From positions 1 through 60,004 of the forward strand of contig CAIPXZ010000765.1 of assembly GCA_903869075.1 (NCBI GenBank): a DNA stretch of 60,004 nucleotides, written 5' to 3'. The DNA comes from an uncultured Myxococcales bacterium. Lineage in GTDB: Bacteria > Myxococcota_A > UBA9042. The position numbers and the translations under genes were made by a program. The notes under the pieces are model-generated. The model had not been told where the DNA came from and made no database searches. It saw nothing but the letters and a program-made list of their open reading frames with translations. This document shows positions 32,566-60,004 of the stretch, piece by piece (position 1 is the stretch's first letter; each line of letters opens with the position of its first letter).

Positions 32566-32573
32566 CCCGTCAC

Positions 32574-32602: not shown

Positions 32603-32614
32603 GAACCGTTGCGA

Positions 32615-42089: not shown

Positions 42090-42095
42090 GCCGGG

Positions 42096-43469: not shown

Positions 43470-43484
43470 GCGCTGGGTCGGCCG

Positions 43485-44201
43485 CTATCCCGCCGCAGTC
43501 GGCTTGGCGCCGTCCGCCGCGAGCATGTAGCCCGTGCCCCAGATCGTCTTGATGTAGCGCGGCTGGCGCGAATCCGCCTCGATCTTGGCGCGCAGGTTCT
43601 TGACGTGCACATCGATCGAGCGGTCGTACGCCGCGTAGCCAACGCCGCGCAGCATATCCATCAGCGCGTCGCGGCTCAGCACCTGGCCGGGGTGACGCAA
43701 AAAGCAGCGCAGCAGGTCGAACTCCGTCGTCGTCAGCTGCACAACCGTGCCATCCGCCGAGACCTCGCGGCGCGCAGTGTCCATGATCAAGTCGCCGACG
43801 CGCAGCGTCTCCGTCACCGGCGCCGGCGCGCCACCGTCCGCGCGACGCAGCACCGCGCGGATGCGCGCCACAAGCTCGCGCGGGTTGAACGGCTTGGACA
43901 GGTAGTCGTCCGCGCCCAGCTCCAGCCCGACGATGCGGTCGCTGTCGCTGCCCTTCGCCGTCAGCATGATGACCGGCACCTTGGACGACGAGCGGATGCG
44001 CCGCAGCACCTCGAAGCCATCCATGCCCGGCAGCATCACGTCCAGCACCAGCAGGTCAAAAACTTCCGACGTCGCGCGGCGCACGCCCTGCAGGCCGTCG
44101 GTAACCAGCGTCACCTGGAAGCCCTCGGGCTTGAGCAGGCGCTCCAGCAGCGCGCCCAGGCGCACGTCATCGTCGATAATCAACAGGCGACCCATGTTCA
44201 C
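43485..44201 (-). CDS. OmpR-family response regulator
   Basis: 238 aa. LLIIDDD...DLLVLDVMLPGMDG...MLTAKG. Winged-helix end YIKTIWGTGY. Confidence 0.93.
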   Translation of the reverse strand: MNMGRLLIIDDDVRLGALLERLLKPEGFQVTLVTDGLQGVRRATSEVFDLLVLDVMLPGMDGFEVLRRIRSSSKVPVIMLTAKGSDSDRIVGLELGADDYLSKPFNPRELVARIRAVLRRADGGAPAPVTETLRVGDLIMDTARREVSADGTVVQLTTTEFDLLRCFLRHPGQVLSRDALMDMLRGVGYAAYDRSIDVHVKNLRAKIEADSRQPRYIKTIWGTGYMLAADGAKPTAAG

Positions 44202-44225
44202 TCCAGTACCGCGGGGGGTGTCCAG

Positions 44226-45256: not shown

Positions 45257-48200
45257 TCAGGGCGCGCACGGCTCGGTGACCTGGATGTCGTCGAGGAAGA
45301 CGCCCTCGTACTTGTCGTTCAGCGTGCAATCGCCCGTGTCGAAGTGGAATTCCACAATGATATTCAGGCCCTGCCACTTGGTCAGCGGCAGCACGATGTT
45401 CTGCTTGGATTTGAACTGCGTCGGCTTGAGGCCGGTCGTCGGGTCCGTGGCGTCCCAGATCATTTGCGACTGCGCGCCGTTCTTGATGATCACCTGGAAG
45501 TGCTCCGTCTGGAACGTGCCGACCGGCTGCTCGATGTCGGCGTAGATCGCGAACTGCAACTGCGCGCTTTGCTTGGGATTCGTGCCGATCTTCAGCACCT
45601 GCGTGTACAGGTCCGAAGTGACGGCGCCACAGCTGCCCGCCGGCGTCGTCGGGTCGTCGTAGTTCCACTTCGCCGGGTTGCCGAAGTAGGCCTCGTACTT
45701 GCCGTTCATGTACTTGTGCGGAATCGCGCTCCACGACGTCAGGATGCCCGGCGTCGCCGAGCCCGTCAGCGAACCCAGCGTCGCGTTCTCGAACGTCACC
45801 GCCGGCAACGGCGAGGTCGGCTGGCAGCAGCCCGGACCGGCCTTGAAGCCGGTGCCGCAGCTGAAGGTCTTGGCAGTCTCGTCCAACGCGCAGGCGTAGC
45901 TCTTGCACGGATCCGGCGTGGCGGGCGTGCAGTCGGCATCCGCGACGCACACGGGCGCGGCGCAAGTAGTCCACATGCTGATGGCGTCGATGTACGGGCC
46001 GATGTGGTTGTTGTTTTTCGGGTTGCCCGCGTCGAATTCCCAGACGAGCTGCACGGTCTTGCCGGCGACGGCGGCGGGCGCCTTGACCGAGATCGGCATC
46101 CACTGGCCGTTGGTCGTGCCGCCGATGTCGTACGAGCTCCACGCCCAGGTGATGTTGGTCGGATCGGTCGGGTCGACAAAGCCAAAGCGCAGGCGGTCGA
46201 CGGCGAAGACCGTGCCGTTGTACTGCGGCACAGCGAATACGGCCGGCGCGTCCCACTCGGTCGACAGGTTCAGGTGGAACGTGACGATGGTTGTGCCGTT
46301 GACGGGCACGGCGACCGGCGCGCTGTTGACCAAGCCGTACGGCACTTTCTGCGAGCCGGCGTCGTAGTTGCCCAGCGTGCTGCCGAAGTACAGCGAGTAC
46401 AGGTCCGGGCTGGTGCCGTAGAAATTGTCCTGCGAAATGTGCCACTTGAGCGTCGTGTCGTACGGGTCGCCGGTGGGCGACGCGGCGGCGGTCGCGAACG
46501 ACGTGGCCCAGCCCGTCGGCAGCGCGGTGCCGCCGGTCTTCTCAAACGACTCGCTGGGGATCTGCGACTTCTCCGTGCAGCAGCCCGCGGTCAGCACGCT
46601 GTCGCACTTGCCCTGGACGCAGGTGTCGACGGTGCAGCTGTCCTTGTCGTCGCAGTCGGTGTCGACGACGCAGATGCCGGACGGCTGGCAGCTGCAGATA
46701 CCGGCGCCGGTCGTCGGATCGCATTTGCCCTTTTCAACCGTGGGCTTGCACTTGCTGTCGCAGTCGCTGTCGACGGCGCACACGGTATCCTGGCAGGTGA
46801 TGTCCATCGAGAAGTCGTCGATGTTCGGACCGGCAAAGGCGTTGCCGCTCGGATCGCCGGCGTCGAACGTGAAGCAAACGCGGCCTTTCTTGCCGGCGAA
46901 CTGGTCGAGGTGCAGCTTGACGGTCTGGTAGTTGCCGTCGTTGCAGCCCTTGATCAGGTCGCTGGACCACAGCGGCGTCTTGATGTTGCCGACGACCTGC
47001 GTGCACTCGGTGGCGCCGCAGTATTGGCCGCCGGTCAGGAAGGTGACGGTCAGCTTGTCCAGCGGCGAGTTCAGCGCGCAGACGCCCAGCACCTTGTTGC
47101 AGCTCTCGCCCGCCGTCTTGCAGTCGGCGTCCGCCGTGCACGGCGCCTGCGAGCCCGGCGGGTTGTTGTACGTGGTCTGGCCGCACCACTCGGTGATCAG
47201 GCTGACGCTGAACTTCACAACGTCGTACAGCGTGCCCGACTGCAGCTGGATCTCCGGCGAGCAAATCGTGCCCTTGGGACCCTGCGTCGTCAGCTTGGGA
47301 TCGGCGTAGCTCTGGAACGTGCTGTCGCTGAAAACGAGCGACTTGCTGCCGGTGGTGCCGCCGGTCGGGTTGACCTTCCAGCCCACGGTCGTCGAGTTGC
47401 TGCCGACGTTCTTCCACGCCGAGATGCCGTTCTCGTAGCCGTCGGCGTAGAGGTTGGACGGCAAGCAGCACTGCGACTGCGACGCGTCCGGCACGTTGCT
47501 GCACAAGCCGGTGGCGGCGGCGCCGACAATCGCGCAACTGTCGATGGTGCAGGTGTTGTTGTCCTGGCAGTCCGCCACGCCGGCGCAGCAGCCCGGCGTC
47601 AGGTCGCCAAAGCAGATGCCCTTGTCGGTGACGTTGTCGTAGAACGTGCAGTCCGTCTGCGCGCAGGCGTTGCCGGTGGTGTTGGTGCACGCGGTTTTCG
47701 TGTCGCAGCCGCTGTTGTCGGTGGCGCAGAGCGTCTCGACTTCGATGTCGTCCAGGTACAGGCCCTCGTACTCGGTCGTGCCGGCTTTGCCGACAAATTG
47801 CCAGGTCACGGTCACCGAGTCACCGAAGCCGGCGAGGTTGATGACGCGGTGCTCCCACTTGCCGCCCGTGGACTTGTCGATCTTGACCGACGACCACACC
47901 GGCGTCGCGCCACTGGCGCCGTTGACGCTGACGGTCAGGACGTCGGTTTCCGTCATGCACGCGTCCTTGGCGCCGCCTCCAAAGTTCACGCAGACCTGGT
48001 CGATCGCGCAGGACGTGCAGGTGGTGCCGGCGTTGCCCGGGTTGAGCTTGACGAACGCCGGGCTGGCGTCCAGCCACAGCCAGTAGTGCAGCACGGTCGG
48101 CTTGGGCGCGCCGGTCGCCTTGTCCTTGGGGATGACGATTTCGGTCGACGTCAGCTTGCCGGTGACCTTCGCGGCGCCGCCGGTGGACTGGCAGGACGTC

Positions 48201-48904
48201 GCGGGGGTGGCGGACGTGTCGTAGTTGTAGCACTCGTTGCCAAAGTAGACCGACGACTTGCCGGTGTGCGCGCGCTTGTTGGAGACCTGCCAGTTCACCG
48301 TCGAACCGGTCGCGGTCGTCGAGACGTTGGTCGCGAAGCTGCTGAGCGTGCCGTCCTCGAACTTGACCTTGGGCAGCGGCGTCTCCTTGTCCGGGCAGCA
48401 GAGCGGCTTCACGCTGTACTCGCACTGGGCGGTGGCCTTGTTGCAAGCAGCGGTCTGGCACAAGATGTCGGCGCAGTCGGTGTCGGAACAGCAGACGTTG
48501 GCGCCGGGCTTGAGCTTCGGGTCGGTGCACTTGTTGTCGACGCAGGTGGTGACCTGGCACTGCGGATCGGCGTTTTTGACCTTGAAGCAGTCGTCGTCGA
48601 TCTTGCACTCCAACGCCACGTCAACCGGCGGCACGTCGGGCTGGATGTCGGGCTGGATGTCGGGACCGGTGTCGGCTGGTGCGGCATCGCTGCCGACGTC
48701 GGACGGGCCGGTGTCGCCGGCATCATCGGTGCTGACGTCATCGGAAGTGTCGTCGCCCGGGCCGGTGTCGGCAGGCGGCGTCACGGTCTTGGAACCGCAA
48801 GCGGCGAGCGCTGCGCTCAGGGCGAGAACCGCCAGAACGCGCTGAAATTTCAGGAGTTCAAGCACAGACTTCGGACAGCGATTCGACATCAGACTGCGAT
48901 TCAT
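45257..48904 (-). CDS. giant Cys-rich lipoprotein, paralog A: four beta-sandwich (MAM/choice-of-anchor-J-like) modules joined by Dictyostelium-type Cys repeats
   Basis: 1215 aa from ATG 48904 with a GAGGGGA SD. Lipobox LSAALAAC|GS and an acidic tether with PDIQPDIQPD. Module ends are YEGLYLDDIEVETLC, FAGPNIDDFSMDITC, HIGPYIDAISMWTTC and YEGVFLDDIQVTEPC. Confidence 0.85.
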   Translation of the reverse strand: MNRSLMSNRCPKSVLELLKFQRVLAVLALSAALAACGSKTVTPPADTGPGDDTSDDVSTDDAGDTGPSDVGSDAAPADTGPDIQPDIQPDVPPVDVALECKIDDDCFKVKNADPQCQVTTCVDNKCTDPKLKPGANVCCSDTDCADILCQTAACNKATAQCEYSVKPLCCPDKETPLPKVKFEDGTLSSFATNVSTTATGSTVNWQVSNKRAHTGKSSVYFGNECYNYDTSATPATSCQSTGGAAKVTGKLTSTEIVIPKDKATGAPKPTVLHYWLWLDASPAFVKLNPGNAGTTCTSCAIDQVCVNFGGGAKDACMTETDVLTVSVNGASGATPVWSSVKIDKSTGGKWEHRVINLAGFGDSVTVTWQFVGKAGTTEYEGLYLDDIEVETLCATDNSGCDTKTACTNTTGNACAQTDCTFYDNVTDKGICFGDLTPGCCAGVADCQDNNTCTIDSCAIVGAAATGLCSNVPDASQSQCCLPSNLYADGYENGISAWKNVGSNSTTVGWKVNPTGGTTGSKSLVFSDSTFQSYADPKLTTQGPKGTICSPEIQLQSGTLYDVVKFSVSLITEWCGQTTYNNPPGSQAPCTADADCKTAGESCNKVLGVCALNSPLDKLTVTFLTGGQYCGATECTQVVGNIKTPLWSSDLIKGCNDGNYQTVKLHLDQFAGKKGRVCFTFDAGDPSGNAFAGPNIDDFSMDITCQDTVCAVDSDCDSKCKPTVEKGKCDPTTGAGICSCQPSGICVVDTDCDDKDSCTVDTCVQGKCDSVLTAGCCTEKSQIPSESFEKTGGTALPTGWATSFATAAASPTGDPYDTTLKWHISQDNFYGTSPDLYSLYFGSTLGNYDAGSQKVPYGLVNSAPVAVPVNGTTIVTFHLNLSTEWDAPAVFAVPQYNGTVFAVDRLRFGFVDPTDPTNITWAWSSYDIGGTTNGQWMPISVKAPAAVAGKTVQLVWEFDAGNPKNNNHIGPYIDAISMWTTCAAPVCVADADCTPATPDPCKSYACALDETAKTFSCGTGFKAGPGCCQPTSPLPAVTFENATLGSLTGSATPGILTSWSAIPHKYMNGKYEAYFGNPAKWNYDDPTTPAGSCGAVTSDLYTQVLKIGTNPKQSAQLQFAIYADIEQPVGTFQTEHFQVIIKNGAQSQMIWDATDPTTGLKPTQFKSKQNIVLPLTKWQGLNIIVEFHFDTGDCTLNDKYEGVFLDDIQVTEPCAP
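48635..48682 (-). repeat. 12-nt tandem repeat in the tether-coding region (two perfect and two degenerate copies)
   Basis: The plus strand reads GTCGGGCTGGAT twice (48635..48646 and 48647..48658), then GTCGGGACCGGT and GTCGGCTGGTGC. Encodes PDIQPDIQPD. Confidence 0.85.
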
Positions 48905-48941
48905 GGGTCCCCTCATTGCGCGAACCGGGGTCGACACTGCT

Positions 48942-48957
48942 CCCAATGCCTGTGCCG
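48942..48957 (-). promoter_or_regulatory. degenerate sigma54-like element (cGGCAC-N5-TTGG)
   Basis: The minus strand reads CGGCACAGGCATTGGG. The -24 GGCAC and the spacing are correct, but the -12 GC is GG. Lies about 40 nt upstream of ATG 48904. Confidence 0.2.
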
Positions 48958-48975
48958 ACACGACCACGTTTCACC

Positions 48976-49004
48976 AGTGTACCTCTGGCCAACGGGTTTC
49001 GCAA
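48976..49004 (-). promoter_or_regulatory. promoter candidate for paralog A (TTGCGA-17 nt-TACACT)
   Basis: On the minus strand: TTGCGA (48999..49004), a 17-nt spacer, then TACACT (48976..48981). Confidence 0.4.
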
Positions 49005-49005
49005 T

Positions 49006-49015
49006 GTCACGTGAC
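49006..49015. promoter_or_regulatory. 10-bp perfect palindrome GTCACGTGAC abutting the -35 element (possible operator)
   Basis: Self-complementary decamer 1 nt upstream of the -35 hexamer of the paralog A promoter candidate. Confidence 0.3.
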
Positions 49016-49066
49016 CGCCGCGCGCGCCGGTTTTTCAGTTGTAGCGGTGGTCGCGGACCCAAGCGA

Positions 49067-51133
49067 TCACGGGCAGTTGCTGACGGCCTGACAGGTGCAC
49101 GCGGCGGCGCTGCAGACCGGCGTTTGGCAGGTCGCGCAGGACATGGCGGCGCAGTCGGCGTCCCAGTAGCAGTCGGCCTTTTGGCAGGCGATGCCGACGC
49201 TCAAATTGTCAATGTTCACGCCGGGTTTGTTGTTCAGCGTGCCGTCGCCCGCGTCAAAGCGCACGCAGACCTGCACGGACTTGCCGGTCCAAGCGTCCAG
49301 CGACACGGTGATGGGCTGCCACTTGCCCTGCGTGGTGCCCAGGATTGCATCGGACGACCACACGGTCTGGTACGTGCCACCGGTGAAGATCTGCACGGAA
49401 AACCAGTCGAGCTTGGAGTTGCCGGGGATCGGCGGGTTCAGGTACTGCGCCGCCGGCACATCCGACCACTCGGTGTCCATGTTCAGGTCGAATTTCAGCA
49501 GCTTGTAGTTCGTCCCCGCCGTCAGCTGGATCGCCTTGGCGCACGCCGCGCCGTGCGGACCTTGGCCGTCCGGCAGCGACGGGTCGTCGTAATCGGTGAA
49601 GATGGCGTTGCCAAAGTACAGGCTGCCGCCGCCGCCGCTGCTGCCGACGTTCGGGTTGCCGCCCTTGGGGTTGGAGCGCCAGAACACGCTGACCGAGTTG
49701 TTGCCGCTGTTCGCCCAGTTGGTCAGCGGCTGGGTGTCGAAAGCGTCGGTGAACAACAGCGACGGCGCGCAGCACGCCGGTTTGCTGGCGTCCGGCTGCG
49801 ATTTGCAGACGTTTTGCGTGCAGGTGTCGACGGTGCAGGCGTTGCCGTCGTCGCAGTCGGCGTCGCCCAAGCAGCAGCCGGCGATGTTGTCGTGAAAGCA
49901 GACGCCCTGACCGACGGCGTTGCTGTAGTCGGTGCAGGTGTCAGCCGTGCAGGCAAGCCCGTCGTCGTCGCAGCTTTGCGTGTCGCTGCAGAGGATTTTG
50001 CCGAGGTCGGGGCAGATGGTCTCGACGACGACGTCGTCCAGGTAGATGCCCTCGTAGCCGTTGTTGGCGTTGGTCTTGGTGGCGAACTGCCAGGCCAGCT
50101 GGATCGACTTACCCTGCCAACTACTTAAATCTACGGCAATATGCCGCCAGCCATCAGGATGCGCCGGGTCGCCGAGCGTCGTCTTGCCGATCTGCGTCGA
50201 CCAAAACACCGTCGCCGGCGGCGCGTCCTGCGCCAGCACTTGCAGCGACAGCAGGTCTTTCTCCGGCTCGCACACGGACGCGCCCGCGACCTCGATGCAC
50301 GACGACGCCGCGTTGCACGGCGGGTCGCACGTCCCCGCCGGCAGCGTCTTGGCGTACGGCGGCTCGGTGTCCAGCCACAGCCAGAAATGTGCCTGCGCGT
50401 TCTTGCCCTTGGGCAGCAGGTACGTCTTGGACAGCAGCGTCGTCGCCACCGGCTGGGTGTCCGTCACCAGCGGCTTGCACGCGCCGGCGGTCGTCTCGGA
50501 GTTGTCGTAGGTGTGGCAAGCGTTGCCAAAATACAGGGATTTCTTGCCGCCGTGCGCCCGCCACGTTGTCTGCTGCCAGCTGACGTTGCCGTTGGTCGGA
50601 CCGTCGGTGGCGACAAAGCCATCCTGGCCGGACTCGAAGGTCGCGTCCTGCAAAAGCACCTTGCCGGAACAGCAGTTGGCGATCGCGACGTTTGTGCACT
50701 TGTGCTGGACCTGGTCGCATTTGTGGGTGTTGCACTCGTTGCCGTCGTCGCAGTCGCTGTCGAGGCAGCACGCGTCGGGGTTCTTGACGGCGGCGCACAC
50801 GCCGGCGGTGCACTTCGGCAATTGGCACGCCGAGAGCGTCAGCTGCGCGGTGCAGTCATCGTCGATGGCGCATTGGCCGACGTCCACGATCGCGTCCACC
50901 ACGTCGGCGACGTCGGGCGTCACGTCCGCGGACACGTCCACCGGCACATCCACGGCGACGTCGGTCACCTCCGCGACCGGCACATCCGCCACCGTGTCGG
51001 CGATCGGCACGTCATCGCCCGCGTCGTCGGCGGCATCCCCCGCCGCGTCCTGCGGCACCGGCGTCACAGCCTGACCGCAAGCCGCCAGCAGCAGCCCCGC
51101 CATGATCGCCGTCGCACGCCTGAGCAGTCGCAT
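49067..51133 (-). CDS. giant Cys-rich lipoprotein, paralog B: two beta-sandwich modules plus Dictyostelium-type Cys repeats
   Basis: 688 aa. Lipobox GLLLAAC|GQ and an Asp/Val/Ala tether. CCLDSDCDDGNECNTHKC and CCLGDADCDDGNACTVDTC. Module ends YEGIYLDDVVVETIC and KPGVNIDNLSVGIAC. Collinear with the N-terminal half of paralog A. Confidence 0.88.
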   Translation of the reverse strand: MRLLRRATAIMAGLLLAACGQAVTPVPQDAAGDAADDAGDDVPIADTVADVPVAEVTDVAVDVPVDVSADVTPDVADVVDAIVDVGQCAIDDDCTAQLTLSACQLPKCTAGVCAAVKNPDACCLDSDCDDGNECNTHKCDQVQHKCTNVAIANCCSGKVLLQDATFESGQDGFVATDGPTNGNVSWQQTTWRAHGGKKSLYFGNACHTYDNSETTAGACKPLVTDTQPVATTLLSKTYLLPKGKNAQAHFWLWLDTEPPYAKTLPAGTCDPPCNAASSCIEVAGASVCEPEKDLLSLQVLAQDAPPATVFWSTQIGKTTLGDPAHPDGWRHIAVDLSSWQGKSIQLAWQFATKTNANNGYEGIYLDDVVVETICPDLGKILCSDTQSCDDDGLACTADTCTDYSNAVGQGVCFHDNIAGCCLGDADCDDGNACTVDTCTQNVCKSQPDASKPACCAPSLLFTDAFDTQPLTNWANSGNNSVSVFWRSNPKGGNPNVGSSGGGGSLYFGNAIFTDYDDPSLPDGQGPHGAACAKAIQLTAGTNYKLLKFDLNMDTEWSDVPAAQYLNPPIPGNSKLDWFSVQIFTGGTYQTVWSSDAILGTTQGKWQPITVSLDAWTGKSVQVCVRFDAGDGTLNNKPGVNIDNLSVGIACQKADCYWDADCAAMSCATCQTPVCSAAACTCQAVSNCP

Positions 51134-51142
51134 CGTCAGTTC

Positions 51143-54100
51143 CTACGGGCAAGCCGCGATGAAGTGCAGGTTGTCAACCGCGACGCCAAAGCCGCTGTTG
51201 GCCACGCCGTCGACGGTGTTGAAGGAGAATTCGAGGGTGATTTCCTGGCCGATGTATGGCGTCAAATCAATTGAAATCGTGGACCAATTTCCGACGGCAT
51301 AGCCATTGGCATTCTTTTCCCACACCTGCGTCGGCACGCCAGCGACGTAGACGTTGATGGTCAAGTCGTCGTAGGGCGGACCCTGCTCGGTGTCCATGAA
51401 CAGGTCAAAAGTGACCTTGCTGTTGACGTTGTTCGGCAGCGTGATCGGCGGCGTCGTTGCGGTGCCGCTGTTGAGGCCAAAGTTGTAATTGCCGGCGCTC
51501 GGGTCGCCGTAATAGAGCACGCCCGGCGGCGTCTTCGACTGCGGGCTCGTCAGCCACAGCTGCCAACCCTGCGTCGTGCCAGCGCTATTGACAAAAACCA
51601 TGCCCATCGCGTCGTTGGTATCAAACGTGTTGCTCCAGATGTCCGGGATGCAGCAGCCCGCGGCGCCGGTCGGCTTGTGCACGCACTTTTGCGCCACGCA
51701 GGTGTCGATCGTGCACTTGGTCTCGCCGTCGGAACAGTCGGCGTCGGCGCTGCAGCAGGTGTTCTGGTTGGAGCAGACGTTCTTGACGCAGGTGTCGATT
51801 GTGCAAGCGTTTTTGTCGTCGCAGCCGCCGTTGCTCTTGCAGCAGCCGGCGATCGCCGCGAACTGGCAGTTGGCGCCGGGTCCGGGGCACGAGTCGGCGG
51901 TGCACGGGTCGCTGTCGTTGCAGTCGCCGTTGCCCATGCAGCAGCTGGCGATCGGGCTGAACTGGCACTTTTGGTTCACGCACTTGTCGGTGGTGCACAG
52001 CACGTTGTCGTTGCAGTCGCCGTCGGCGGCGCAGCAGCTGTACGGCCACGTGCACTGGCCGTCCGAGCAGACGCCGGTGTAACAGTTGAGCGTGAACGAC
52101 GGCGCGCAAGCCGCTGTATTCGCGCATTTTTTTGGCTGGCAGGTGCAGTCGATATGCACATTGTCCAGGTACACCTGCGTGTTGGTGAGCGTGCCAAACG
52201 TCGAGCTCGGCGCGACCTCAAAGTGCAGCGCGAAGCTCTTGCCGGCCACGGCGGACAGGTCCACCGTCACGGTCTGCCACGCCACGACCGCCGAATTCAC
52301 GGTCTTGGTCACGAGCGTCGTGTCCACACCGTCGATGTCTGCGGAAACGCGCAGGTTCAAGCCGGACGACACGGTGTCGGCGCGGAAGCTGAAGCTCAGC
52401 GACGCTTCCTTGCCCGGCAGCAGCGTCAGGTACGGCGAGACGGCTGTCGCCTTGGGCTTGGTGTTGGCTGGAACGCCGTACGTCGTGGCGCCGGGCAAGC
52501 CAAACGCCAGCACGCCGGTGCCGCCGGTCGAGTCGGCGATCTTGAGTGCATACCACGTCGGTCCGTTCGCGCTCATCGGCGTGATTGTGTAGCCATCGTC
52601 GCTGCCGTCAAACGCGCTGCTGAGCACCGTCGGCGCGCAGCAACCGGGTGCGGTGGACGCGGCGTACGCGCACTGGCCGGCGGTGCAGGCGTCCTTGGTG
52701 CACGGGTTGAAGTCGTCGCAGTCGCCGTCGCTCTGGCAGCAAACGCTCTGGAACACGCACTGGCCGGCGCTGCAGCTGCCGGTGAAGCAGGAGTCGGCCG
52801 AGACGCACTCCGCGTCGGTCTTGCAGCAGGTGTTCTGGTGCTTGCAGCCGCCGCCGGGTGCGGCGCAGTCGTCGATGGTGCAGGCGTCCTTGTCGTCGCA
52901 GTCGGCGGCGGTCATGCAGCAGTCGATCTTGGCGCTGTGCTGGCAGTTGCCACCCGGCACCGGGCAAAGGTCCAGCGTGCACGGCTTGTTGTCGTTGCAG
53001 TCGCCGATTGTGTTGCAGCAGTCCGCCTTGGGCGTGTGGACGCACGCGGGCGTGCCGGCGGTCGTCGGCTGGCAGGCGTCCACGCTGCAGGCGTTGCCGT
53101 CGTCGCAGTCGGCTGGCGCGGCGCAGCAGCCAGTGGAGATCTCGACCTCGTCGATGTACACGCCCTCAAACGCGTTGACGTTGCCGTCGATCGAGTCGAA
53201 CGCGAACTGCAGCGTCACCGATTGGCCCGCCCAGGCCGAGACGTCCAGCGTCACCCGCTGCCACGAGCCGTGCGTCGTGCTGAGCATCGGGTCGGAATTC
53301 CACAGCGGCACCGTCGCGGCGCCGTCCAGCACGTTGACGGTCAGCATGTCGTAGCCGGCCGAGGCTTCGGTGTCCATCCACAGCCAGAACGACGCCGTCG
53401 GGTTGACGCCCGCGGTCTTGGGCACCGGCAGCGGCGGCAGCGTGGCGGTCCCGGCGACCTGCTTGCCGTTGGCGTAGGTCAGGCTGGTCGGGTCGCCAAA
53501 ATACAGGCTGACGCCGCCGGAGACGCTGCGCGCGCTGCTGAAATTCCACTGGATGCCGCCCTTGGCGGTGTCCTGGACCGACACGCCTTCGCCCTGGCCG
53601 TCCAGCGGCGCGATGCCGGCGACCGCGCTCAGCTTGCCGGTGGCGATCTTGGGCGCGCATGCGAGGCACGGCGTGACGTCATCGGCGAGGCCGGCGCCGT
53701 AGCACGCGACCTGGCCGTCGCCGTACGGCGTCAAGCAGACGTTGGCCTTGAGCGTGTACGTGCACTTGCCCTGGAAGCAGATGCCCTTGGCGCACGGGAT
53801 CTCGCAGTCGCTGTTGGCGCTGCAGGCCGTGGCATGCAGGGATTTGCCAATGCCGGCGGCGTCTTCGGGCGGCACGTCGACGGCAACCTCGGCGGCATCC
53901 ACGGCATCGGTGCCGGGCACGACGTCGGTCACGGCGTTCACGTCCGGCGCGTCGGGGCCGGTGTCCACCGTGGCATCGGTCACCGCGTCCACGCCAGCGT
54001 CGGTGGCGGCATCGTCGCCATCGGCCGCATCCGGTGCGGCGACGTCGGTTGCGACAGCATCGGTCTGCGCGTCATCGGTGGCAGCATCGGCGTCCGTTCC

Positions 54101-54211
54101 CGGCTGGGTCGTGTCGCTCGTCGCCACAGGCGCACCGCACGCCGCCAGCAGCAGGCACAGCAGGCACGCCGACTGCCACCGCCCCAAGCCCTTCGTCACG
54201 GCCATGTCCAT
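51143..54211 (-). CDS. giant Cys-rich lipoprotein, paralog C: three beta-sandwich modules separated by two blocks of Dictyostelium-type Cys repeats
   Basis: 1022 aa from ATG 54211 (MDMAVTKGLGRWQSACLLCLLLAAC|GA) with a purine-rich SD. Module ends FEGVYIDEVEISTGC, NTQVYLDNVHIDCTC and GFGVAVDNLHFIAAC. The track ORF to 55129 overlaps the OMP gene. Confidence 0.88.
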   Translation of the reverse strand: MDMAVTKGLGRWQSACLLCLLLAACGAPVATSDTTQPGTDADAATDDAQTDAVATDVAAPDAADGDDAATDAGVDAVTDATVDTGPDAPDVNAVTDVVPGTDAVDAAEVAVDVPPEDAAGIGKSLHATACSANSDCEIPCAKGICFQGKCTYTLKANVCLTPYGDGQVACYGAGLADDVTPCLACAPKIATGKLSAVAGIAPLDGQGEGVSVQDTAKGGIQWNFSSARSVSGGVSLYFGDPTSLTYANGKQVAGTATLPPLPVPKTAGVNPTASFWLWMDTEASAGYDMLTVNVLDGAATVPLWNSDPMLSTTHGSWQRVTLDVSAWAGQSVTLQFAFDSIDGNVNAFEGVYIDEVEISTGCCAAPADCDDGNACSVDACQPTTAGTPACVHTPKADCCNTIGDCNDNKPCTLDLCPVPGGNCQHSAKIDCCMTAADCDDKDACTIDDCAAPGGGCKHQNTCCKTDAECVSADSCFTGSCSAGQCVFQSVCCQSDGDCDDFNPCTKDACTAGQCAYAASTAPGCCAPTVLSSAFDGSDDGYTITPMSANGPTWYALKIADSTGGTGVLAFGLPGATTYGVPANTKPKATAVSPYLTLLPGKEASLSFSFRADTVSSGLNLRVSADIDGVDTTLVTKTVNSAVVAWQTVTVDLSAVAGKSFALHFEVAPSSTFGTLTNTQVYLDNVHIDCTCQPKKCANTAACAPSFTLNCYTGVCSDGQCTWPYSCCAADGDCNDNVLCTTDKCVNQKCQFSPIASCCMGNGDCNDSDPCTADSCPGPGANCQFAAIAGCCKSNGGCDDKNACTIDTCVKNVCSNQNTCCSADADCSDGETKCTIDTCVAQKCVHKPTGAAGCCIPDIWSNTFDTNDAMGMVFVNSAGTTQGWQLWLTSPQSKTPPGVLYYGDPSAGNYNFGLNSGTATTPPITLPNNVNSKVTFDLFMDTEQGPPYDDLTINVYVAGVPTQVWEKNANGYAVGNWSTISIDLTPYIGQEITLEFSFNTVDGVANSGFGVAVDNLHFIAACP
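51650..52036 (-). repeat. block of four CC-delimited Dictyostelium-type repeats (paralog C, aa 726-854)
   Basis: CCAADGDCNDNVLCTTDKC..., CCMGNGDCNDSDPCTADSC..., CCKSNGGCDDKNACTIDTC... and CCSADADCSDGETKCTIDTC.... Confidence 0.8.
52637..53128 (-). repeat. block of five CC-delimited Dictyostelium-type repeats (paralog C, aa 362-525)
   Basis: CCAAPADCDDGNACSVDAC...CVHTP, CCNTIGDCNDNKPCTLDLC, CCMTAADCDDKDACTIDDC, CCKTDAECVSADSCFTGSC and CCQSDGDCDDFNPCTKDAC. Confidence 0.8.
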
Positions 54212-54347
54212 GCGTCTCTCCCTCTGGCCACGCACCCATCGCGGCCTTTGACGGGCGATCGGCGGGCCTTCCGTGCGTTCCAAGGGCCTGCAGCCCAAGC
54301 AGTTCTTGGCGAAAGCTGGCCGGCAACGGCAGCGGACGCATCGGCCC

Positions 54348-54377
54348 AGTGTAACACGGGCGGCGCGGCACAGACAA
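54348..54377 (-). promoter_or_regulatory. promoter candidate for the paralog C-B operon (TTGTCT-18 nt-TACACT)
   Basis: On the minus strand: TTGTCT (54372..54377), an 18-nt spacer, then TACACT (54348..54353), followed by GG as in the paralog A promoter. Confidence 0.35.
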
Positions 54378-54405
54378 ATGACAGTTGCGGGTCGCGGTGT
54401 GCGGA

Positions 54406-56088
54406 TTAGAACTTGAAGCGCAGCGCCGCGTCCAGCCGCCACACCGACAACGCACGCGCGCCCGAGGGCGCATCCAGCGCGTCGCCCGGCAGCAGGTACG
54501 ACGCGCGCAGCATGGCGACCGTCTTGGCAGCCTTCCACCACAGCGACGCCTCTGGCTCCAAGCCGAGGAACGTGCCGTGGCCCGGCGTGGCGCCTTCCGA
54601 CGCGGCAAGCGCCGTCATCACGCCGACGTTGCCGAACAGGCCCTCGTCGGCGCCGGTCTCGAGCAGCGAAACGCGCCAATTCGGCTTGAAATACCAAGCA
54701 TTGGCCACGGCGCCGATGATGTCGCGAAACAGGATGCTGTCGACCAAGAAGCCGCGGTGAAAGCTGTAGCCGGTGATGAGCGAGCGCGGCGCGGCGTCCG
54801 GCGCGGCGCCGGTGCGCCAGTTGTCCTGGTCGTTGACGCCAAAGCCGCCACTGCTGTCGCCGGTGGCGAGGCCGAGGTCGAGGTTCCACAGCTGGCGGCC
54901 AAAGCGCCACTCGCCTTTGCCGGCAAAACCGCCGCCAACCAAGGTCTTGGACGTCACCGTGCTGGTCCGTTCGTCGGCGTTGGCGACGGTGCCGTAGCGA
55001 AACGCGCCTTCCAGCTGCAGCCGCATCGGCGCGTCGGCGACCTTGCCGCGCCAGTCCAGGTAGATTTGTGGCGTGAATTCGCGGACGGTGCGCGGGATCA
55101 GCTGGTCGCACGTCCGCTGCGCCGAGCAATCGCCGTGCTCGCCGTAAAAGCCGTTGTCCTGGCTCTGGTACATCAGCGCCGCGGCGAATTTCAGGCCCGG
55201 CGCCTCCGCCGGCTTGGCCGTCTCCGCTTGCAGCAGCCAGCGCGTCGCGTCGGCGCTGATCTCCTGCGGCAGCGGCTGGCCCTCGGTCACGGTGGCGTTG
55301 ACGCCCTTGGTCAGCACCGAGGTGCCGGTCAGGACCGTCGAGCTCAGCGGCCCTTTGAACACGATGTCGCGCGCCGCCATCAGGCGAAAACCGAACAGTT
55401 CCGCAGAGATCTGAATGCGGTCGACGTCCGTCTGGAAGTCTGACATCAGGTCGCGGCCGTCATTGCGCACCATGCCGAGGCCAAAATGGTCGCCCATCCG
55501 GCCAATGTCCAGCTCGCCCATGCCCAGCACGCGCACGTGGACCCACGCGCGCCGCACGCCGATCGCCGCCACCGATGCCACGCCGCCGGTCGGCGACGTC
55601 CACTGCGCCAGGTACTGCCCGTAATTGTTGGCAGTTGTCGCGTTCAGCCCGGTGCCGGTCGCCTTCAACGGCACCACCGACGCCGCCTGCGTATCCACGC
55701 CCAGCCGGCTCTGACCGCCCAGCGTCAGGTTGCTGACGCCGTCAATTTGCGTACAAATATCCGCCCATTCCGCGACGTGCAGCACCGGATCAAAGCGCAG
55801 GCGCAGATCGCCGATGCCCATCTGGCCATCGCTCGGCGTGGTGTTGGACTCGCCGTGGCGGACGTCCAGGTGCGGCGCAATGCTGGGATCCGACGTGGTA
55901 AAGCGCACGCCGTTCAGGTAATCCAGCCGCGTCCGCAGCTCACCGTGCAGATCCAGCGACACGAGCGGCGTGGCGGGCGGCGCGGGCTGGCCATCGGTCG
56001 GCGCTTCCGCGGCAAACGCCGGCAGCGCGCCCAGACCGCACAGGGTCAAGGTCAGGCCAAGGCGCACGCGCGAAAAGGATGACAGCAT
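54406..56088 (-). CDS. outer-membrane beta-barrel protein (family not recognised)
   Basis: 560 aa from ATG 56088. Signal LCGLGALPAFA|AE. Long run of alternating amphipathic strands. Terminal ...LDAALRFKF has an aromatic C-terminus. Promoter-like elements lie inside the longer track ORF. Confidence 0.75.
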   Translation of the reverse strand: MLSSFSRVRLGLTLTLCGLGALPAFAAEAPTDGQPAPPATPLVSLDLHGELRTRLDYLNGVRFTTSDPSIAPHLDVRHGESNTTPSDGQMGIGDLRLRFDPVLHVAEWADICTQIDGVSNLTLGGQSRLGVDTQAASVVPLKATGTGLNATTANNYGQYLAQWTSPTGGVASVAAIGVRRAWVHVRVLGMGELDIGRMGDHFGLGMVRNDGRDLMSDFQTDVDRIQISAELFGFRLMAARDIVFKGPLSSTVLTGTSVLTKGVNATVTEGQPLPQEISADATRWLLQAETAKPAEAPGLKFAAALMYQSQDNGFYGEHGDCSAQRTCDQLIPRTVREFTPQIYLDWRGKVADAPMRLQLEGAFRYGTVANADERTSTVTSKTLVGGGFAGKGEWRFGRQLWNLDLGLATGDSSGGFGVNDQDNWRTGAAPDAAPRSLITGYSFHRGFLVDSILFRDIIGAVANAWYFKPNWRVSLLETGADEGLFGNVGVMTALAASEGATPGHGTFLGLEPEASLWWKAAKTVAMLRASYLLPGDALDAPSGARALSVWRLDAALRFKF

Positions 56089-56097
56089 CGACGTCCT

Positions 56098-56114
56098 GGC
56101 AACGCGCGGGCCAA
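56098..56114 (-). promoter_or_regulatory. near-consensus sigma54 -24/-12 promoter element (TTGGCCCGCGCGTTGCC)
   Basis: The minus strand reads TGGCCC-GCGCG-TTGC. GG and GC are exactly 10 nt apart. Only one core mismatch to TGGCAC-N5-TTGC. The GC lies about 12 nt before ATG 56088. Confidence 0.45.
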
Positions 56115-56134
56115 CATGGCTCCGGGGACGGCGG

Positions 56135-56163
56135 AGTGTAGGAGTCATGGCCGGTCTGCGCAA
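56135..56163 (-). promoter_or_regulatory. promoter candidate upstream of the OMP gene (TTGCGC-17 nt-TACACT)
   Basis: On the minus strand: TTGCGC (56158..56163), a 17-nt spacer, then TACACT (56135..56140). Confidence 0.4.
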
Positions 56164-56205
56164 CCCGATCCGCACCGGTCGCGACCACGTCCGGCGCGAT
56201 TTGCA

Positions 56206-58632
56206 CTACTTCGCGCGCGTCGGCGCCTCGTAGACGGTCAGCATCGGCACGCCGTCCAGCGACCATTGCGCCACCGGCGTGCGCCATTTGTAGGCCTGCC
56301 ACAGGTCCAGCTCGTAGTCGTCGTGGTCTTTTTGGTGGTGAAAAAAGCCCAGCGCCGTCGGGGTATTGGCCTCGGACGTGTAGCGCAGGTCGCGGCGGAA
56401 CCAGCCCTCGCGCTGGTACATGACGTACGCCCCCCAGGCGGATTTATGGAACCAAATCAAGGCGTTTTGCGGCGCCCGGCGGTTCACTTCCTCCAGCAGC
56501 GCGCGCGTCGTGCCACCCCAGAACTGCCGCTGCATGCCGGCCTCGGCGGCGCCGGGAATGCCGCCAATCAGGTCGTTGTAGTACGCCGTGCCCTGCGGAT
56601 GCGCGTCCGCTGTCGCCTGCGCCGACGGCAGCAGCACCGCCAGCGCCATCGCCCAAGCCAGCAGCCCCGGCACCGCTTGGCCGCGCCACCAGGACGGCGT
56701 CGTCGGCGCGTACTGGCGCATCAGCGCCGCTTCCACGCTGCCGGGATTGACGCCCTCCATGTCGGTCGCGTTGCCGTCAGTCGGGGCGATCGCCTCCGCC
56801 AGCCGCCGCCACACGGCCTGCAGCCCGCGCGCGGCGATGAGCAGCATGAAGGCGAACGCCAGCATCCAGTGCTTGGTGCCGCCAAAAATCGGCGTGCCGG
56901 GCATGGAAATCAGCGCCATCGGCCAGATCGCGCTCAGCAGGATCAGCCGGTCCCAGCTGCGCAGCTCGGCGGTGCGGCCAAAATCGTCGAGTCCCAGCGG
57001 CCCCGCCCGACGCATCCGCGCCCGCACCGCCGCCACGACGGCCATCCGCCCCATCTCGCGCGCGGTGTCCTCGCGGCGCTTTGTCGCCACGTCCAGCGGC
57101 ACCGTCGCGTCGTGCTGCACTTCCACCGACTGCGACCGCTGCTGCCGCCACACCCGCAGGTCGTGCAGCACGTGCGGCAGGTGCCGCGGCCAGTACACGG
57201 CGACCAAGCCCAGCGCCACGGCGACAAGCAGCACCAGCGGCCACGTCAGCGCCGTCATCACCCAAGCAAACTGCGGCGGGAACGGCGGATAGGCCAGCAC
57301 CTGGCCAAAATAGGTCTGCATGTAGTGTTCATGGTGGAGGTGAAACTCCAGCCAGCGCAGGAAGTTATCCAGCGTGTCCACCCACAGCAGCGGCCAGCCG
57401 GCGACCAGGATGGCAAAGCCGACAGGCAGCATCACGAAAAACACCGCCGGCACCGGCGGCGTCGACACCTGCAGGAACCGCGTCAGCGGCAGCAGCAGCA
57501 TCGCCAGCGCCAGCACCGGGTGCAGGTGGTACGCCGGCGCCGCCAGCACCACGCCAGCCACCAGCCACGGCACGCGCCGCAGCCAGGAACCCGGCGCGAG
57601 CGTGATCTCGAACCGGCGCTCGGCGATCGCGTCCCACAGCCAGTGGCCGATCAGCACGACCGGCAAAAACAGCGCGTTGTGCTTGGCCAGCAGTGAAAAA
57701 CCCCAGAGCACGGCCGTCGGCAGGATCCAGCGCCGGCTGCGCAACGCGCGGTGGTAGCAGAGCGTGGTCGCAAACAGCAGCGTCGTGATCGTCGTGTCGA
57801 AACACGCCAAGTGCGCGTGGTAGAACGGCTGCGGCAGGCACAGCCAGCCGACGCCCGCGCACACTGCGAACGCGCGCGTCGCCTGCGCCGGACCCCACGC
57901 CGTCTGCGGCGCCGTGAACAGCATCCGCGCGGCGAGGTACAGCAGCGCCACAAGCAGGCCGGCAAAAACCGCGCCGGGAAAGCGCATGGCGTCGGACTCG
58001 CTCATCATGTACAGCTTGCGCTGCTCCACGGCCTCGCAGCCCGTGCGGCGGATGACGCCCTTGTCGCCCACGCCCGGCGCCAGGCACGCCGCTTTCAGCG
58101 CCGCGAGGTCCACGGACTTGTCCAGCCGCACCGTCGCGTGATCGTTCTTGCGCTCCAGCACCTTGCCCTGCACGAGCCGCCGCGGCCCCGTCTCCGGCGG
58201 CCCGCCGACAAGCTGCGGCTTGAGCAGCCAGATCCGGCTGTTCGGCTCAAAACCGTGCGCCGGACCCAGCTCGTTGATGTCCAGCGTCGGCTCGCCGTCC
58301 ACCACATGGATGTTGGAAACCGGGCGCAGCTTGCGGCCAAAAGCCCGCCACGACCAGCCAAACAGGATCTTGTCGAGCGGCGGGTGCTCGGAATTCGCCC
58401 GCCAGGTGTCGAGGATCGCCTTGCGTTCCAGCGCGTCCGCCCGCGCCTTGCCGCCCGCTTCCACTTTGACGAACCAGTCCTGATACGTCTCGGCGTGGCC
58501 AAAATAGAAGGCTTCGTCGCGGACAAAGCCCATGTCGTTGGTCATGACCAGCAGCAGCGTGGCCACGCACCACAGCGCCGCGGCGATGCCGAGGTCCAGC
58601 GGACGGCGCAGTTGGGGTTGGGGCGTGGTCAT
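56206..58632 (-). CDS. GT-C fold glycosyltransferase, protein O-mannosyltransferase (GT39/PMT)- or ArnT-like, with an inserted hydrophilic loop domain
   Basis: 808 aa with many TM helices. Loop-1 motifs VRDEAFYFGH (DE motif) and EHPPLDKIL as in PMT/ArnT enzymes. A roughly 115-aa insertion (aa 100-214) precedes the MRFPGAVFAGLLVALLYL helix. Confidence 0.85.
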   Translation of the reverse strand: MTTPQPQLRRPLDLGIAAALWCVATLLLVMTNDMGFVRDEAFYFGHAETYQDWFVKVEAGGKARADALERKAILDTWRANSEHPPLDKILFGWSWRAFGRKLRPVSNIHVVDGEPTLDINELGPAHGFEPNSRIWLLKPQLVGGPPETGPRRLVQGKVLERKNDHATVRLDKSVDLAALKAACLAPGVGDKGVIRRTGCEAVEQRKLYMMSESDAMRFPGAVFAGLLVALLYLAARMLFTAPQTAWGPAQATRAFAVCAGVGWLCLPQPFYHAHLACFDTTITTLLFATTLCYHRALRSRRWILPTAVLWGFSLLAKHNALFLPVVLIGHWLWDAIAERRFEITLAPGSWLRRVPWLVAGVVLAAPAYHLHPVLALAMLLLPLTRFLQVSTPPVPAVFFVMLPVGFAILVAGWPLLWVDTLDNFLRWLEFHLHHEHYMQTYFGQVLAYPPFPPQFAWVMTALTWPLVLLVAVALGLVAVYWPRHLPHVLHDLRVWRQQRSQSVEVQHDATVPLDVATKRREDTAREMGRMAVVAAVRARMRRAGPLGLDDFGRTAELRSWDRLILLSAIWPMALISMPGTPIFGGTKHWMLAFAFMLLIAARGLQAVWRRLAEAIAPTDGNATDMEGVNPGSVEAALMRQYAPTTPSWWRGQAVPGLLAWAMALAVLLPSAQATADAHPQGTAYYNDLIGGIPGAAEAGMQRQFWGGTTRALLEEVNRRAPQNALIWFHKSAWGAYVMYQREGWFRRDLRYTSEANTPTALGFFHHQKDHDDYELDLWQAYKWRTPVAQWSLDGVPMLTVYEAPTRAK

Positions 58633-58641
58633 CGGCGTCGG

Positions 58642-60004
58642 CTACTCGTCTTCGTCGCCGGGCTTGCCGGCAACCAGGTTGTATTTGCGGGCCAGCCGCC
58701 GGAAATGCTTGCGATCCACGTCCGCGTCGCGCGCCGCTTGGCTCAGGTTGCCGCCGTGGCGCGCCAGCACGGCAGCCAGGTAATCGCGCTCAAAAGTGCC
58801 CAACCAGCTCTCCTTGGCGTCGCGGAAGTTGCGATCCGCGTGCAACGGCAGCGCCGCCACCACCGGCTGGCTCGGCGCCAGCGGCTCCGTCAGCGCGTGC
58901 GCGTCCTGCCGGCGGCGCGGCGCGTCCGTACCGCGGATACTTTCGGGCAAATCATCGGCTTGCAGCAAGTCGCCGTCGGCAAAAGAGCACGCGCGCTCGA
59001 CGATATTGCCCAATTCCCGCACGTTGCCCGGCCAGTCGTAGTCGTGCAGCAGCTGGAGCGCTTCCTGGCTGATGCCCTTGACGCGCTGGCCTTCGGGCTC
59101 CCTCGGCCCGCCGACACCGCGGTTGAAGGCGCCGTTGCGCAGCAGATGTTCCGCCAAAAGCCGAACATCCTCGCGGCGTTCCCGCAGCGGCGGCAGGTGC
59201 AACCGCACCACGCCCAGGCGGTAGAACAGGTCTTCGCGAAAGCGCCCGGCCTTGACCTCGGCCTGCAGGTCGCGGTTGGTGGCGGCAAGGACGCGCACGT
59301 TGATCTGGATCGGCCGGTTGCCGCCCACGCGGCGAATTTCGCGCGTCTCCAGCGCCCGCAGCAGCTTGGGCTGCAGGTCCAGCGCCAGCTCACCGACCTC
59401 GTCGAGGAAGATCGTGCCGCCGTGCGCCAGCTCGAACAGGCCCTGGCGGGCGGCCAGCGCGCCGGTAAAGCTGCCTTTCTCGTGACCAAACAGTTCGGAT
59501 TCAATCAGGTTTTGCTGCACCGCGCTGCAGTCAAAGACGATGAACGGCTGGTTGGCGCGCGCAGAGAGGTGGTGCAGCGTGCGCGCCACGACCTCCTTGC
59601 CGGTGCCGGTTTCGCCTTCCAGCACCACCGTCGCGCCGGTTGGCGCCACTTTCTCGACCGCCGCCATCAGCCGCCGCATCGACTCGGATTGGCCGACCAA
59701 GCCGCCCAGCTGCGCCTCCGCGCGCGGCCGCAGGTCCAGCTTTTCGGTCACCACCGAGAACCGCAGCGACGTCGCGCCCAGCCGCACGGTGCAGCCGGAG
59801 CGCAGCCACGCCTCGCGCACGCGCACGCGGTCGACGTACGTGCCCGTGGCCGAGCGCAGGTCCTCGATCAGGAACGCCTCGCCATCGCTGAAGATCCGCG
59901 CGTGATGGCGGCTGACGCGGTCGTCATCCAGCACCAAATCGTTGTCTTCCAGCGCGCCAAGCGTCACTTGCGGCTGGTCAAAAATGTACTCGGTGGCGCT
60001 GCCA
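58642..60004 (-). CDS. sigma54-dependent transcriptional activator with N-terminal FHA domain (5' end outside window)
   Basis: The frame is open to the window edge ([40 protein letters not shown]-like). AAA+ motifs [14 protein letters not shown] and ELFYRL-like (DLFYRLGVV). Fis-type [24 protein letters not shown]. Stop lies 9 nt before the GT-C gene. Confidence 0.9.

Follow-up and report, generated by a model that had tools for sequence, protein, structure and literature searches.

A candidate composite envelope neighbourhood encoding a divergent GT-C fold glycosyltransferase, an outer-membrane barrel and Cys-rich lipoproteins in uncultured Myxococcota

Sigma-54 regulons often relate to the cell exterior (PMC3162934). 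The PMT_2 clan includes protein O-mannosyltransferases that glycosylate actinobacterial lipoproteins (PMC3460810), and the named characterised Gram-negative extracytoplasmic glycosyltransferases of the GT-C fold, namely ArnT, GtrC and the pentofuranose side-chain transferase, take lipid A or the O-antigen of lipopolysaccharide (LPS) as acceptor (PMC11194591). Genes recalling these families lie side by side on a contig of an uncultured Myxococcales bacterium (CAIPXZ010000765.1, assembly GCA_903869075.1; 60,004 bp, about 68% G+C), which was analysed over its whole length and is called here the window. From position 45257 to the window end, its minus strand carries six open reading frames (ORFs) encoding an FHA/sigma-54 activator, a GT-C fold glycosyltransferase (hereafter the GT-C), an outer-membrane beta-barrel and three Cys-rich lipoproteins, named C, B and A in gene order. 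The original prediction, made from the sequence, saw in them one surface-glycoprotein system and knew of no described counterpart; none was found in the literature that we searched either (TIGR04551, GT39 in Myxococcus, choice-of-anchor J, PMT_2 with lipoproteins).

We give about an even chance to the reading that this locus is a composite, sigma-70-driven envelope neighbourhood, carried on the core chromosome by a lineage of uncultured freshwater Myxococcota and made of two or three separable modules. The first would be the operon in which a dksA-like gene precedes those for the FHA/sigma-54 activator and the GT-C, and which is read in relatives from a sigma-70-type promoter. The second would be an 18-strand barrel of AlgE/MOMP/OprD type with its own promoter, and the third would comprise two or three paralogous Cys-rich MAM-type lipoproteins and, downstream of them, a HEAT protein with an OmpR/histidine-kinase pair, again with promoters of its own. 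The features concerned are the following.

58642..60004, minus strand: FHA + AAA+ + Fis-type helix-turn-helix (HTH) enhancer-binding protein, from Pfam domains and motifs; 5' end lost at the contig end
56206..58632, minus strand: divergent GT-C fold glycosyltransferase (PMT_2 clan), integral-membrane, 808 aa, from PF13231 matches of relatives, AlphaFold2 (AF2) model and Foldseek
56135..56163, minus strand: predicted sigma-70-type promoter of the barrel gene, TTGCGC-N17-TACACT, motif conserved at this position in most orthologous loci
54406..56088, minus strand: outer-membrane beta-barrel, 18-strand, 560 aa, TIGR04551 superfamily, from NCBIfam (E 1e-50), AF2 and Foldseek
54348..54378, minus strand: predicted sigma-70-type promoter of the C-B lipoprotein operon, TTTGTC / TG-extended TACACT, one pattern match in 15/15 barrel-to-C spacers
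51143..54211, minus strand: lipoprotein C, 1022 aa, from PF20773, PF00526, NF038128, lipobox and orthologs
49067..51133, minus strand: lipoprotein B, 688 aa, from PF20773, NF038128 and orthologs
48976..49004, minus strand: predicted sigma-70-type promoter of lipoprotein A, TTGCGA-N17-TACACT, strict-motif match conserved in 9/9 further A-carrying loci
45257..48904, minus strand: lipoprotein A, 1215 aa from the ATG at 48904, 34% identical to B (E 1e-96)
44226..45182, minus strand: HEAT-repeat protein, membrane-anchored (HEAT_2 7.7e-17), beyond the limit set by the original prediction
43485..44201, minus strand: OmpR-type response regulator, from Pfam; travels with the lipoprotein block
42261..43469, minus strand: HAMP histidine kinase, from Pfam; travels with the lipoprotein block

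All six ORFs lie where the original prediction had placed them and have the sizes it gave, the activator being truncated on its 5' side by the contig end. Its lower limit did not hold: the conserved block extends beyond 45257 into the HEAT protein and the OmpR/histidine-kinase pair (42261-45182). In every case the HEAT gene accompanies the lipoprotein genes, as does the two-component system where this is visible, and the boundary at 45257 was therefore too tight.

The same gene order is found in about 16 distinct uncultured Myxococcota loci, with GT-C identities of 48-87%, so that the synteny anticipated in related genomes does exist. Among the 22 loci in which the GT-C is at least 45% identical, the activator stands immediately upstream of it in about 20 (9 nt apart or overlapping by 4 nt), the barrel comes next in 16-18, and C, B and A follow in order in 14. 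Further loci came from lookups by individual proteins and from a metagenome scan starting from the barrel. The whole region of about 30 kb is collinear in this lineage, housekeeping genes included. CTP synthase, UvrD, MoaE, Rce1 and the dksA-like gene form the conserved upstream flank, while the downstream one consists of the HEAT protein, the OmpR regulator, the histidine kinase, a DUF3473 deacetylase, FadL, MutY, patatin, GlmM and PdxJ, and relatives whose GT-C is 48-56% identical share this flanking order with the window.

All rearranged genomes break the cluster, either between the GT-C and the barrel or between the barrel and the lipoproteins. In sample ERZ27310456, the dksA-like gene, the activator and the GT-C stand alone (L001) and the barrel, C, B, A and HEAT genes are on another contig (L085). 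The Baikal metagenome-assembled genome GCA_009692425.1 carries activator, GT-C and barrel on L012, and the lipoproteins C, B and A with HEAT protein, response regulator, histidine kinase and deacetylase on a separate contig, L089. In L098, 5.3 kb of unrelated genes separate the GT-C from the barrel; lipoproteins are missing from L011, L013 and L094, the barrel from L004 and L022, and the activator from L015. The HEAT gene invariably comes after the last lipoprotein gene, and L085/L086, L089, L092 and one further syntenic locus have kept it beside the lipoproteins; the response regulator and histidine kinase keep their order in L089, where GT-C and barrel are on the other contig, and in one further syntenic locus. 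The view of the six genes as a single unit thus gives way before splits at different points in two genomes, the insertion in L098 and the equal collinearity of the housekeeping flanks.

The two relocated blocks have particular neighbours. Directly upstream of the barrel in L085 (7958-9895) are genes for an extracytoplasmic function sigma factor and a zf-HC2 anti-sigma factor. In L089 (521-6738), three radical-SAM genes and an HxsD-like gene, resembling a peptide-modification cluster, precede the moved lipoproteins.

Control of the unit by sigma-54, the regulatory part of the original prediction, was not borne out. A window-wide scan for TGGCAC-N5-TTGC allowing up to two mismatches gave 90 matches for 97 expected, which is chance level, and neither scored scans nor visual alignment revealed a conserved GG-N10-GC in the intergenic regions of 14-19 orthologous loci. 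What is conserved is a predicted sigma-70-type promoter for each transcription unit, as assessed from -35/-10 pairs across 9-15 loci. TTGACC-N17-TACCAT is found upstream of dksA/activator in relatives, and TTGnnn-N17-TACACT or TAGACT upstream of the barrel in most orthologous loci. The barrel-to-C spacers contain exactly one -35/extended -10 match in 15 cases out of 15 (background 0.16 per kb), and TTGCGn-N17-TACACT precedes A in all nine further A-carrying loci. The strict motif occurs four times in 120 kb (both strands of the window), before the barrel gene, before C, before A and, at a distance of 177 nt, before rpsB, and in 287 kb of orthologous loci it is almost solely present at the same intergenic sites. 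As far as can be judged from sequence, this suggests that TTGnnn-N17-TACACT is the strong primary-sigma promoter type of the lineage. With the barrel and lipoprotein genes on promoters of this type, the sigma-54 targets of the activator would lie elsewhere.

One site, TGGCCCGCGCGTTGCC (window 56098-56113, minus strand), agrees with the sigma-54 consensus at 10 of 12 positions and lies in the barrel 5' leader, between the -10 and the start codon. It is kept in the closest relative (L008), has TTGT for TTGC in L007 and is absent in more distant loci; this match is probably due to chance. Away from the cluster, TGGCGCAGAAATTGC (37736-37750, minus strand) is a one-mismatch match to the sigma-54 -24/-12 pattern in the 3' end of MutY, about 85 nt before the likely start of the patatin-like phospholipase, and no other one-mismatch match in the window is plausibly placed and oriented. 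The site before rpsB (13234-13262, plus strand), TTGCGT-N17-TACACT, has the same form as the barrel and lipoprotein promoters.

FHA-type activators are unusually common in myxobacteria, and the first gene does encode, as had been read from it, a sigma-54 activator with FHA, AAA+ and Fis-type HTH domains. Pfam matches cover FHA (1.6e-17), Sigma54_activat (PF00158, 1.1e-68), HTH_8 (3.3e-5) and AAA_lid_14, and the protein has the Walker A motif GETGTGK, the GSFTGA loop and the Walker B motif DEVGE; it has what defines an enhancer-binding protein, a Sigma54_activat AAA+ domain with a GAFTGA-type loop and a DNA-binding HTH. Its frame is open to the window end and lacks about 25 N-terminal codons, orthologs being of 465-479 aa with a complete FHA domain. 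This architecture is identical to that of the FHA-domain NtrC-like activators of M. xanthus, but no sigma-54 promoter could be assigned to the activator here. Because its stop codon is 9 nt from the GT-C start, and the two genes overlap by 4 nt in one relative, they are almost certainly co-transcribed; in relatives, a dksA-like gene, whose place would be beyond the window end, lies upstream of the activator.

A palindrome, TGGGG-N8-CCCCA, overlies the TTGACC -35 of the activator promoter in L006 (8442), L016 (8409), L018 (8483), L019 (8437) and L021 (8420), loci where we found no dksA-like gene ahead of the activator, and it is a possible operator. As it is present nowhere else in the cluster, we could not tie it to the activator. 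In L102 (2784-4043), an FHA/sigma-54 activator homolog of 54% identity is encoded close to two TIGR04551-like barrels that are themselves distant (27-28% identical), and a GT-C is lacking there; this may point to a link between the activator and barrel families that does not depend on the GT-C.

For the second gene, described at first as a PMT/ArnT-like GT-C glycosyltransferase, the GT-C fold and the PMT_2 clan stood, and the specific relation to PMT did not, given the lack of a MIR domain, the sub-threshold scores and the about equally weak matches to ArnT, STT3 and PMT. Neither the 808-aa protein used as a single sequence (Pfam to E 10) nor a 45-sequence profile gave a usable match in Pfam, NCBIfam or the PDB sequences; with direct searches empty, its placement comes from the PMT_2 matches of its relatives and from predicted structure. 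The homologs are all from Myxococcota-type metagenome bins, some of them named 'glycosyltransferase family 39', and among 45 family members 19 match PMT_2 (PF13231), 7 PMT and 2 STT3, while none has a MIR domain or matches the ArnT NCBIfam. The window GT-C has no PF02366/PF13231 match even at E 10 and cannot be assigned to GT39 on that basis.

An AF2 model built on the 45-relative alignment (predicted local distance difference test score 87.6, predicted TM-score 0.88) gave Foldseek matches to ArnT (5f15, E 7e-5), STT3 (8e-5), Pmt4 (3e-3) and Pmt1/2 (2e-2), as well as to AglB, DPY19 and PglB, with probability of about 1 and low TM-scores. D39 and E40 are invariant in 45 sequences and are positioned in the first periplasmic loop after the first transmembrane helix, at the start of helix 38-59; by fold and acidic loop residues the enzyme thus belongs with GT-C_A (ArnT/PMT/STT3 type). 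The same loop contains a small beta-barrel insert (residues 103-205), like V-ATPase N-terminal and FlgT-like barrels, that is absent from more distant relatives. There is a C-terminal periplasmic domain, and a His pair (H272/H274) and basic residues are conserved in the membrane domain. On this model, the protein belongs to the PMT_2 clan as a very divergent enzyme of GT-C fold, its distances to PMT, ArnT and the oligosaccharyltransferases being about equal. A scan of one genome per GTDB species gave at least 591 matches, the best 78 of these loci being all from Myxococcota or Bradymonadales. The family is widespread without such lipoproteins, and at 30-37% identity neither they nor the activator are encoded close to the GT-C.

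Compared with the GT39 enzymes (yeast Pmt1/2/4 and actinobacterial Pmt), the window GT-C shares the fold, the Asp-Glu pair (D39-E40) opening the first loop, relatives matching PMT_2 and weakly PMT, and a neighbourhood encoding disordered lipoprotein tethers that contain Thr and Ser. It differs in having neither a PMT/PMT_2 match nor MIR, with the beta-barrel insert in loop 1 instead, in Foldseek E-values of only 3e-3 to 2e-2, not better than for STT3 or ArnT, in its diderm host, and in that no polyprenol-phosphate mannose synthase is encoded near it. With ArnT (GT83), the best structural match (5f15), it has in common a periplasm-facing GT-C architecture with a C-terminal soluble domain and the H272/H274 pair with basic residues. 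It does not, however, group with ArnT: PDB and NCBIfam sequence searches gave no match, no arn/pmr operon or PmrAB-type context appears in the window or related loci, and the gene is translationally coupled to an FHA/sigma-54 activator. The three-component systems (GtrABC, Arn and the pentofuranose side-chain system) also employ a GT-C at the periplasmic face with a lipid-linked monosaccharide donor (PMC11194591), but their donor synthase and flippase have no equivalent in the cluster or in the whole 60-kb window. An activator-coupled, barrel-associated GT-C without donor genes would be at most a variant of extracytoplasmic glycosylation.

The third gene product, predicted as a 560-aa beta-barrel outer-membrane protein, is also modelled as one. 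It has a signal peptide and aligns with TIGR04551 over 502 of 519 positions (E 1.1e-50); its 173 bits do not reach the curated cutoff of 300 bits, making it a homolog lying outside the curated family. The protein itself has no Pfam match, and one homolog matches Alginate_exp (PF13372). In the AF2 model, 18 strands are well predicted and long loops have low confidence. Foldseek matches are AlgE (7.8e-15), C. jejuni MOMP (7.8e-13) and OccK/OprD (about 1e-12), with no likeness to protein translocators of the Omp85, TpsB or Slam type among them. The predicted barrel therefore resembles all three 18-strand channels AlgE, OprD (Occ) and Campylobacter MOMP (E 1e-12 to 8e-15), but is larger (560 aa), has long loops and lacks an alginate synthase or AlgK partner; no alg genes are near it and it does not qualify as an AlgE-type alginate export porin. 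As modelled, it is an AlgE/MOMP/OprD-like channel for solutes or polysaccharides, a probable major porin that may be a partner of the GT-C. Such a fold speaks against the suggestion that the barrel displays the lipoproteins, as does the fact that most of its relatives have no such lipoproteins nearby. The M. xanthus Wzp porins are PgaA-like proteins of about 415 aa (PMC9603273); we rejected a Wzp/PgaA-like polysaccharide porin, since PgaA is outside the top 50 structural matches. In one locus, a distant barrel homolog adjoins rpsB-tsf. No function was found described for TIGR04551 in the literature searched.

The association of GT-C and barrel reappears beyond the clade. Among the 50 distant loci with enough upstream sequence, 10 encode, on the strand of their 30-34% identical GT-C and 30-145 nt ahead of it, a TIGR04551-like barrel (hhalign 97%, NCBIfam E 4e-22). 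All ten are Lujinxingia-type (Bradymonadales), including the cultured Lujinxingia vulgaris TMQ2, and their order is the reverse of that in the window. In L. vulgaris TMQ2, the pair (NZ_VOSL01000054.1, about 218.5-222.0 kb) is flanked by an esterase gene on one side and by UvrC/SurA genes on the other, and its GT-C scores above the PMT_2 threshold. This reversed adjacency is the best evidence we have that GT-C and barrel form a functional pair, and it remains a hint, drawn from gene order.

The three remaining genes are tandem lipoprotein paralogs, as predicted, with B starting 9 nt after C. All have a LAAC lipobox (Cys36 in A, Cys19 in B, Cys25 in C), which is what identifies them as lipoproteins, and a Cys content of 5.8-7.6%; they are predicted to be located in the outer membrane. 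A and B are 34% identical over 686 aa (E 1e-96), A and C 27%, B and C 25%. C consists of a 105-aa acidic tether, Cys-rich repeats of Dicty_CTDC type and three MAM/choice-of-anchor-J jelly-roll modules, B has two Cys-knot + MAM-like modules and A has four. The profiles proposed for them, MAM/choice-of-anchor J and Dicty_CTDC, were all found in C above curated cutoffs (PF20773 54.8, PF00526 (Dicty_CTDC) 35.4 and NF038128 52.5 bits) and the former in B (PF20773 37.9, NF038128 38.8 bits), while A stays under the cutoff (NF038128 23.1 bits). PDB sequence searches with B and C gave no match. Orthologs of C (39-82% identity) occupy the same position, those of B are 44-76% identical, and A is absent from L010, L047 and one further syntenic locus.

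The tethers, of 64-105 aa, are disordered and were described as rich in Asp, Thr, Ser and Pro. Asp indeed amounts to 21-23%, with Ala, Val, Pro and Thr, but Ser+Thr make up just 7-19%. An unrelated WD40/MopE lipoprotein of the window (4480-7716, plus strand) carries the same type of acidic tether after its lipobox, and we therefore rejected the idea that it is specific to the cluster: judged from these sequences, the tether is a trait of the organism's large lipoproteins. More distant MAM lipoproteins sit in unrelated contexts without a GT-C.

According to the composite reading, the barrel and lipoproteins would be abundant, constitutive surface components, strongly transcribed by the primary sigma factor. 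The GT-C would take a sugar from a polyprenyl-phosphate donor and transfer it at the periplasmic face of the inner membrane. As its acceptors we would favour envelope proteins that are in transit, in the first place the neighbouring barrel and possibly the tethers of the lipoproteins too. That the acceptor is a protein, be it the barrel, the tethers or both, we nevertheless think less likely than not, and that it is a lipid or a glycan slightly less likely still. A more ambitious version has a small chance of being right: a diderm-specific protein O-glycosylation in which a deep-branching PMT_2-clan GT-C, its insert binding the acceptor, would modify porin loops of TIGR04551 type and lipoprotein tethers, co-transcription with the activator tying it to Ser/Thr-kinase signalling.

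Several points weigh against this interpretation in one or another of its parts. The promoters are predicted consensus matches whose backing is conservation, and a sigma-54 promoter of unusual sequence would escape our scans. The top structural match of the GT-C is a lipid A transferase, and among the genes of the 60-kb window there is no polyprenyl-phosphate sugar synthase or flippase. The long loops of the barrel contain 17-31% Ser/Thr in close relatives, an enrichment that fades in distant orthologs. Finally, adjacency is missing for 40 of the 50 distant GT-C relatives and for about 45 distant barrels, so that the pairing could be coincidental.

The structural match to ArnT leads to an alternative that we consider rather unlikely. 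An ArnT-like GT-C using a polyprenyl-phosphate donor would add a sugar to lipid A, to the LPS core or to some other glycan or glycolipid of the envelope, the barrel would be a porin or glycan exporter and the lipoproteins would be unrelated. The characterised Gram-negative GT-Cs named above indeed use lipid A or O-antigen as acceptors (PMC11194591), the family is widespread in Myxococcota amid housekeeping genes (UvrC, SurA, TrmD), which fits a general envelope function, and the barrel itself comes closest to an alginate exporter, with one homolog matching Alginate_exp. However, not one of the 45 members matches the ArnT NCBIfam, the structural matches to STT3, AglB and PMT nearly equal that to ArnT, there are no arn-type, GtrAB-type or polysaccharide-synthase genes nearby, and a lipid acceptor leaves the recurrent adjacency of the barrel unexplained.

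It is improbable that the six genes have no functional link and are adjacent merely through collinearity in a slowly rearranging lineage. Such an explanation draws on the conserved order of CTP synthase, UvrD, MoaE and Rce1 upstream and of MutY, patatin, GlmM and PdxJ downstream in the same loci, on the disruption of the cluster in every rearranged genome, and on the separate promoter of each unit. It does not account for the tight spacing of activator and GT-C in about 20 of 22 loci, for the recurrence of the GT-C/barrel adjacency, reversed, in Lujinxingia-type genomes at about 32% identity, or for C, B, A, the HEAT protein, the response regulator and the histidine kinase remaining together when relocated.

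Very improbable, finally, is the integrated system originally envisaged, where the tethers of all three lipoproteins would receive O-glycans from the GT-C, the barrel would bring these proteins to the surface and a Ser/Thr-kinase signal would turn on the unit through the FHA/sigma-54 activator: the order kept in about 16 loci, the Thr and Ser of the tethers, the PMT_2-clan membership shared with lipoprotein-modifying actinobacterial enzymes (PMC3460810) and the other large Cys-rich lipoproteins that adjoin activator-GT-C, downstream in L004/L022 and upstream in L018, speak for it, but it is opposed by the lack of a conserved -24/-12 with a sigma-70-type promoter for each unit, a barrel fold that is that of a channel and not of an Omp85/TpsB/Slam translocator, the two different breakpoints, the equally collinear housekeeping flanks, the acidic tether of the unrelated WD40 lipoprotein, distant MAM lipoproteins without a GT-C and a GT-C family widespread without such lipoproteins.

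If the GT-C of the composite neighbourhood acts on proteins, it would represent PMT-like O-glycosylation in a phylum of Gram-negative bacteria for which, to our knowledge, no such pathway has been described, nor did the literature searched contain one, and it would provide a first function for TIGR04551 barrels. The rpsB-like promoters of the latter suggest that they rank among the major outer-membrane proteins in Myxococcota and Bradymonadales. Even on the more modest reading, the analysis delimits a GT-C family that is widespread and unannotated (at least 591 genomic matches), together with conserved, probably abundant surface lipoproteins of uncultured freshwater myxobacteria. The present outcome consists of annotations and hypotheses, and Lujinxingia vulgaris, a cultured organism carrying the GT-C/barrel pair, is open to testing.

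Some minor observations concern the surroundings. After the two-component system, a DUF3473 polysaccharide deacetylase and a FadL/TodX-type barrel are encoded with a 4-nt overlap (window 39898-42215, minus strand); this pair is also kept in one syntenic relative that lacks A, while in L089 the deacetylase gene is followed, with an identical 4-nt overlap, by an unannotated 438-aa gene. The window encodes three further large putative surface lipoproteins, of WD40 + MopE (4480-7716, plus strand), Kelch + MopE (28939-32751, minus strand) and PKD-like type (15093-16982, plus strand), and in L004 a WD40/MopE protein follows the Cys-rich protein adjoining the GT-C. The cluster is also present in records labelled 'uncultured Enterobacteriaceae bacterium' (binchicken, third party annotation (TPA); L009, L010, L018, L019, L023); it is clearly myxobacterial there and the label is probably wrong.

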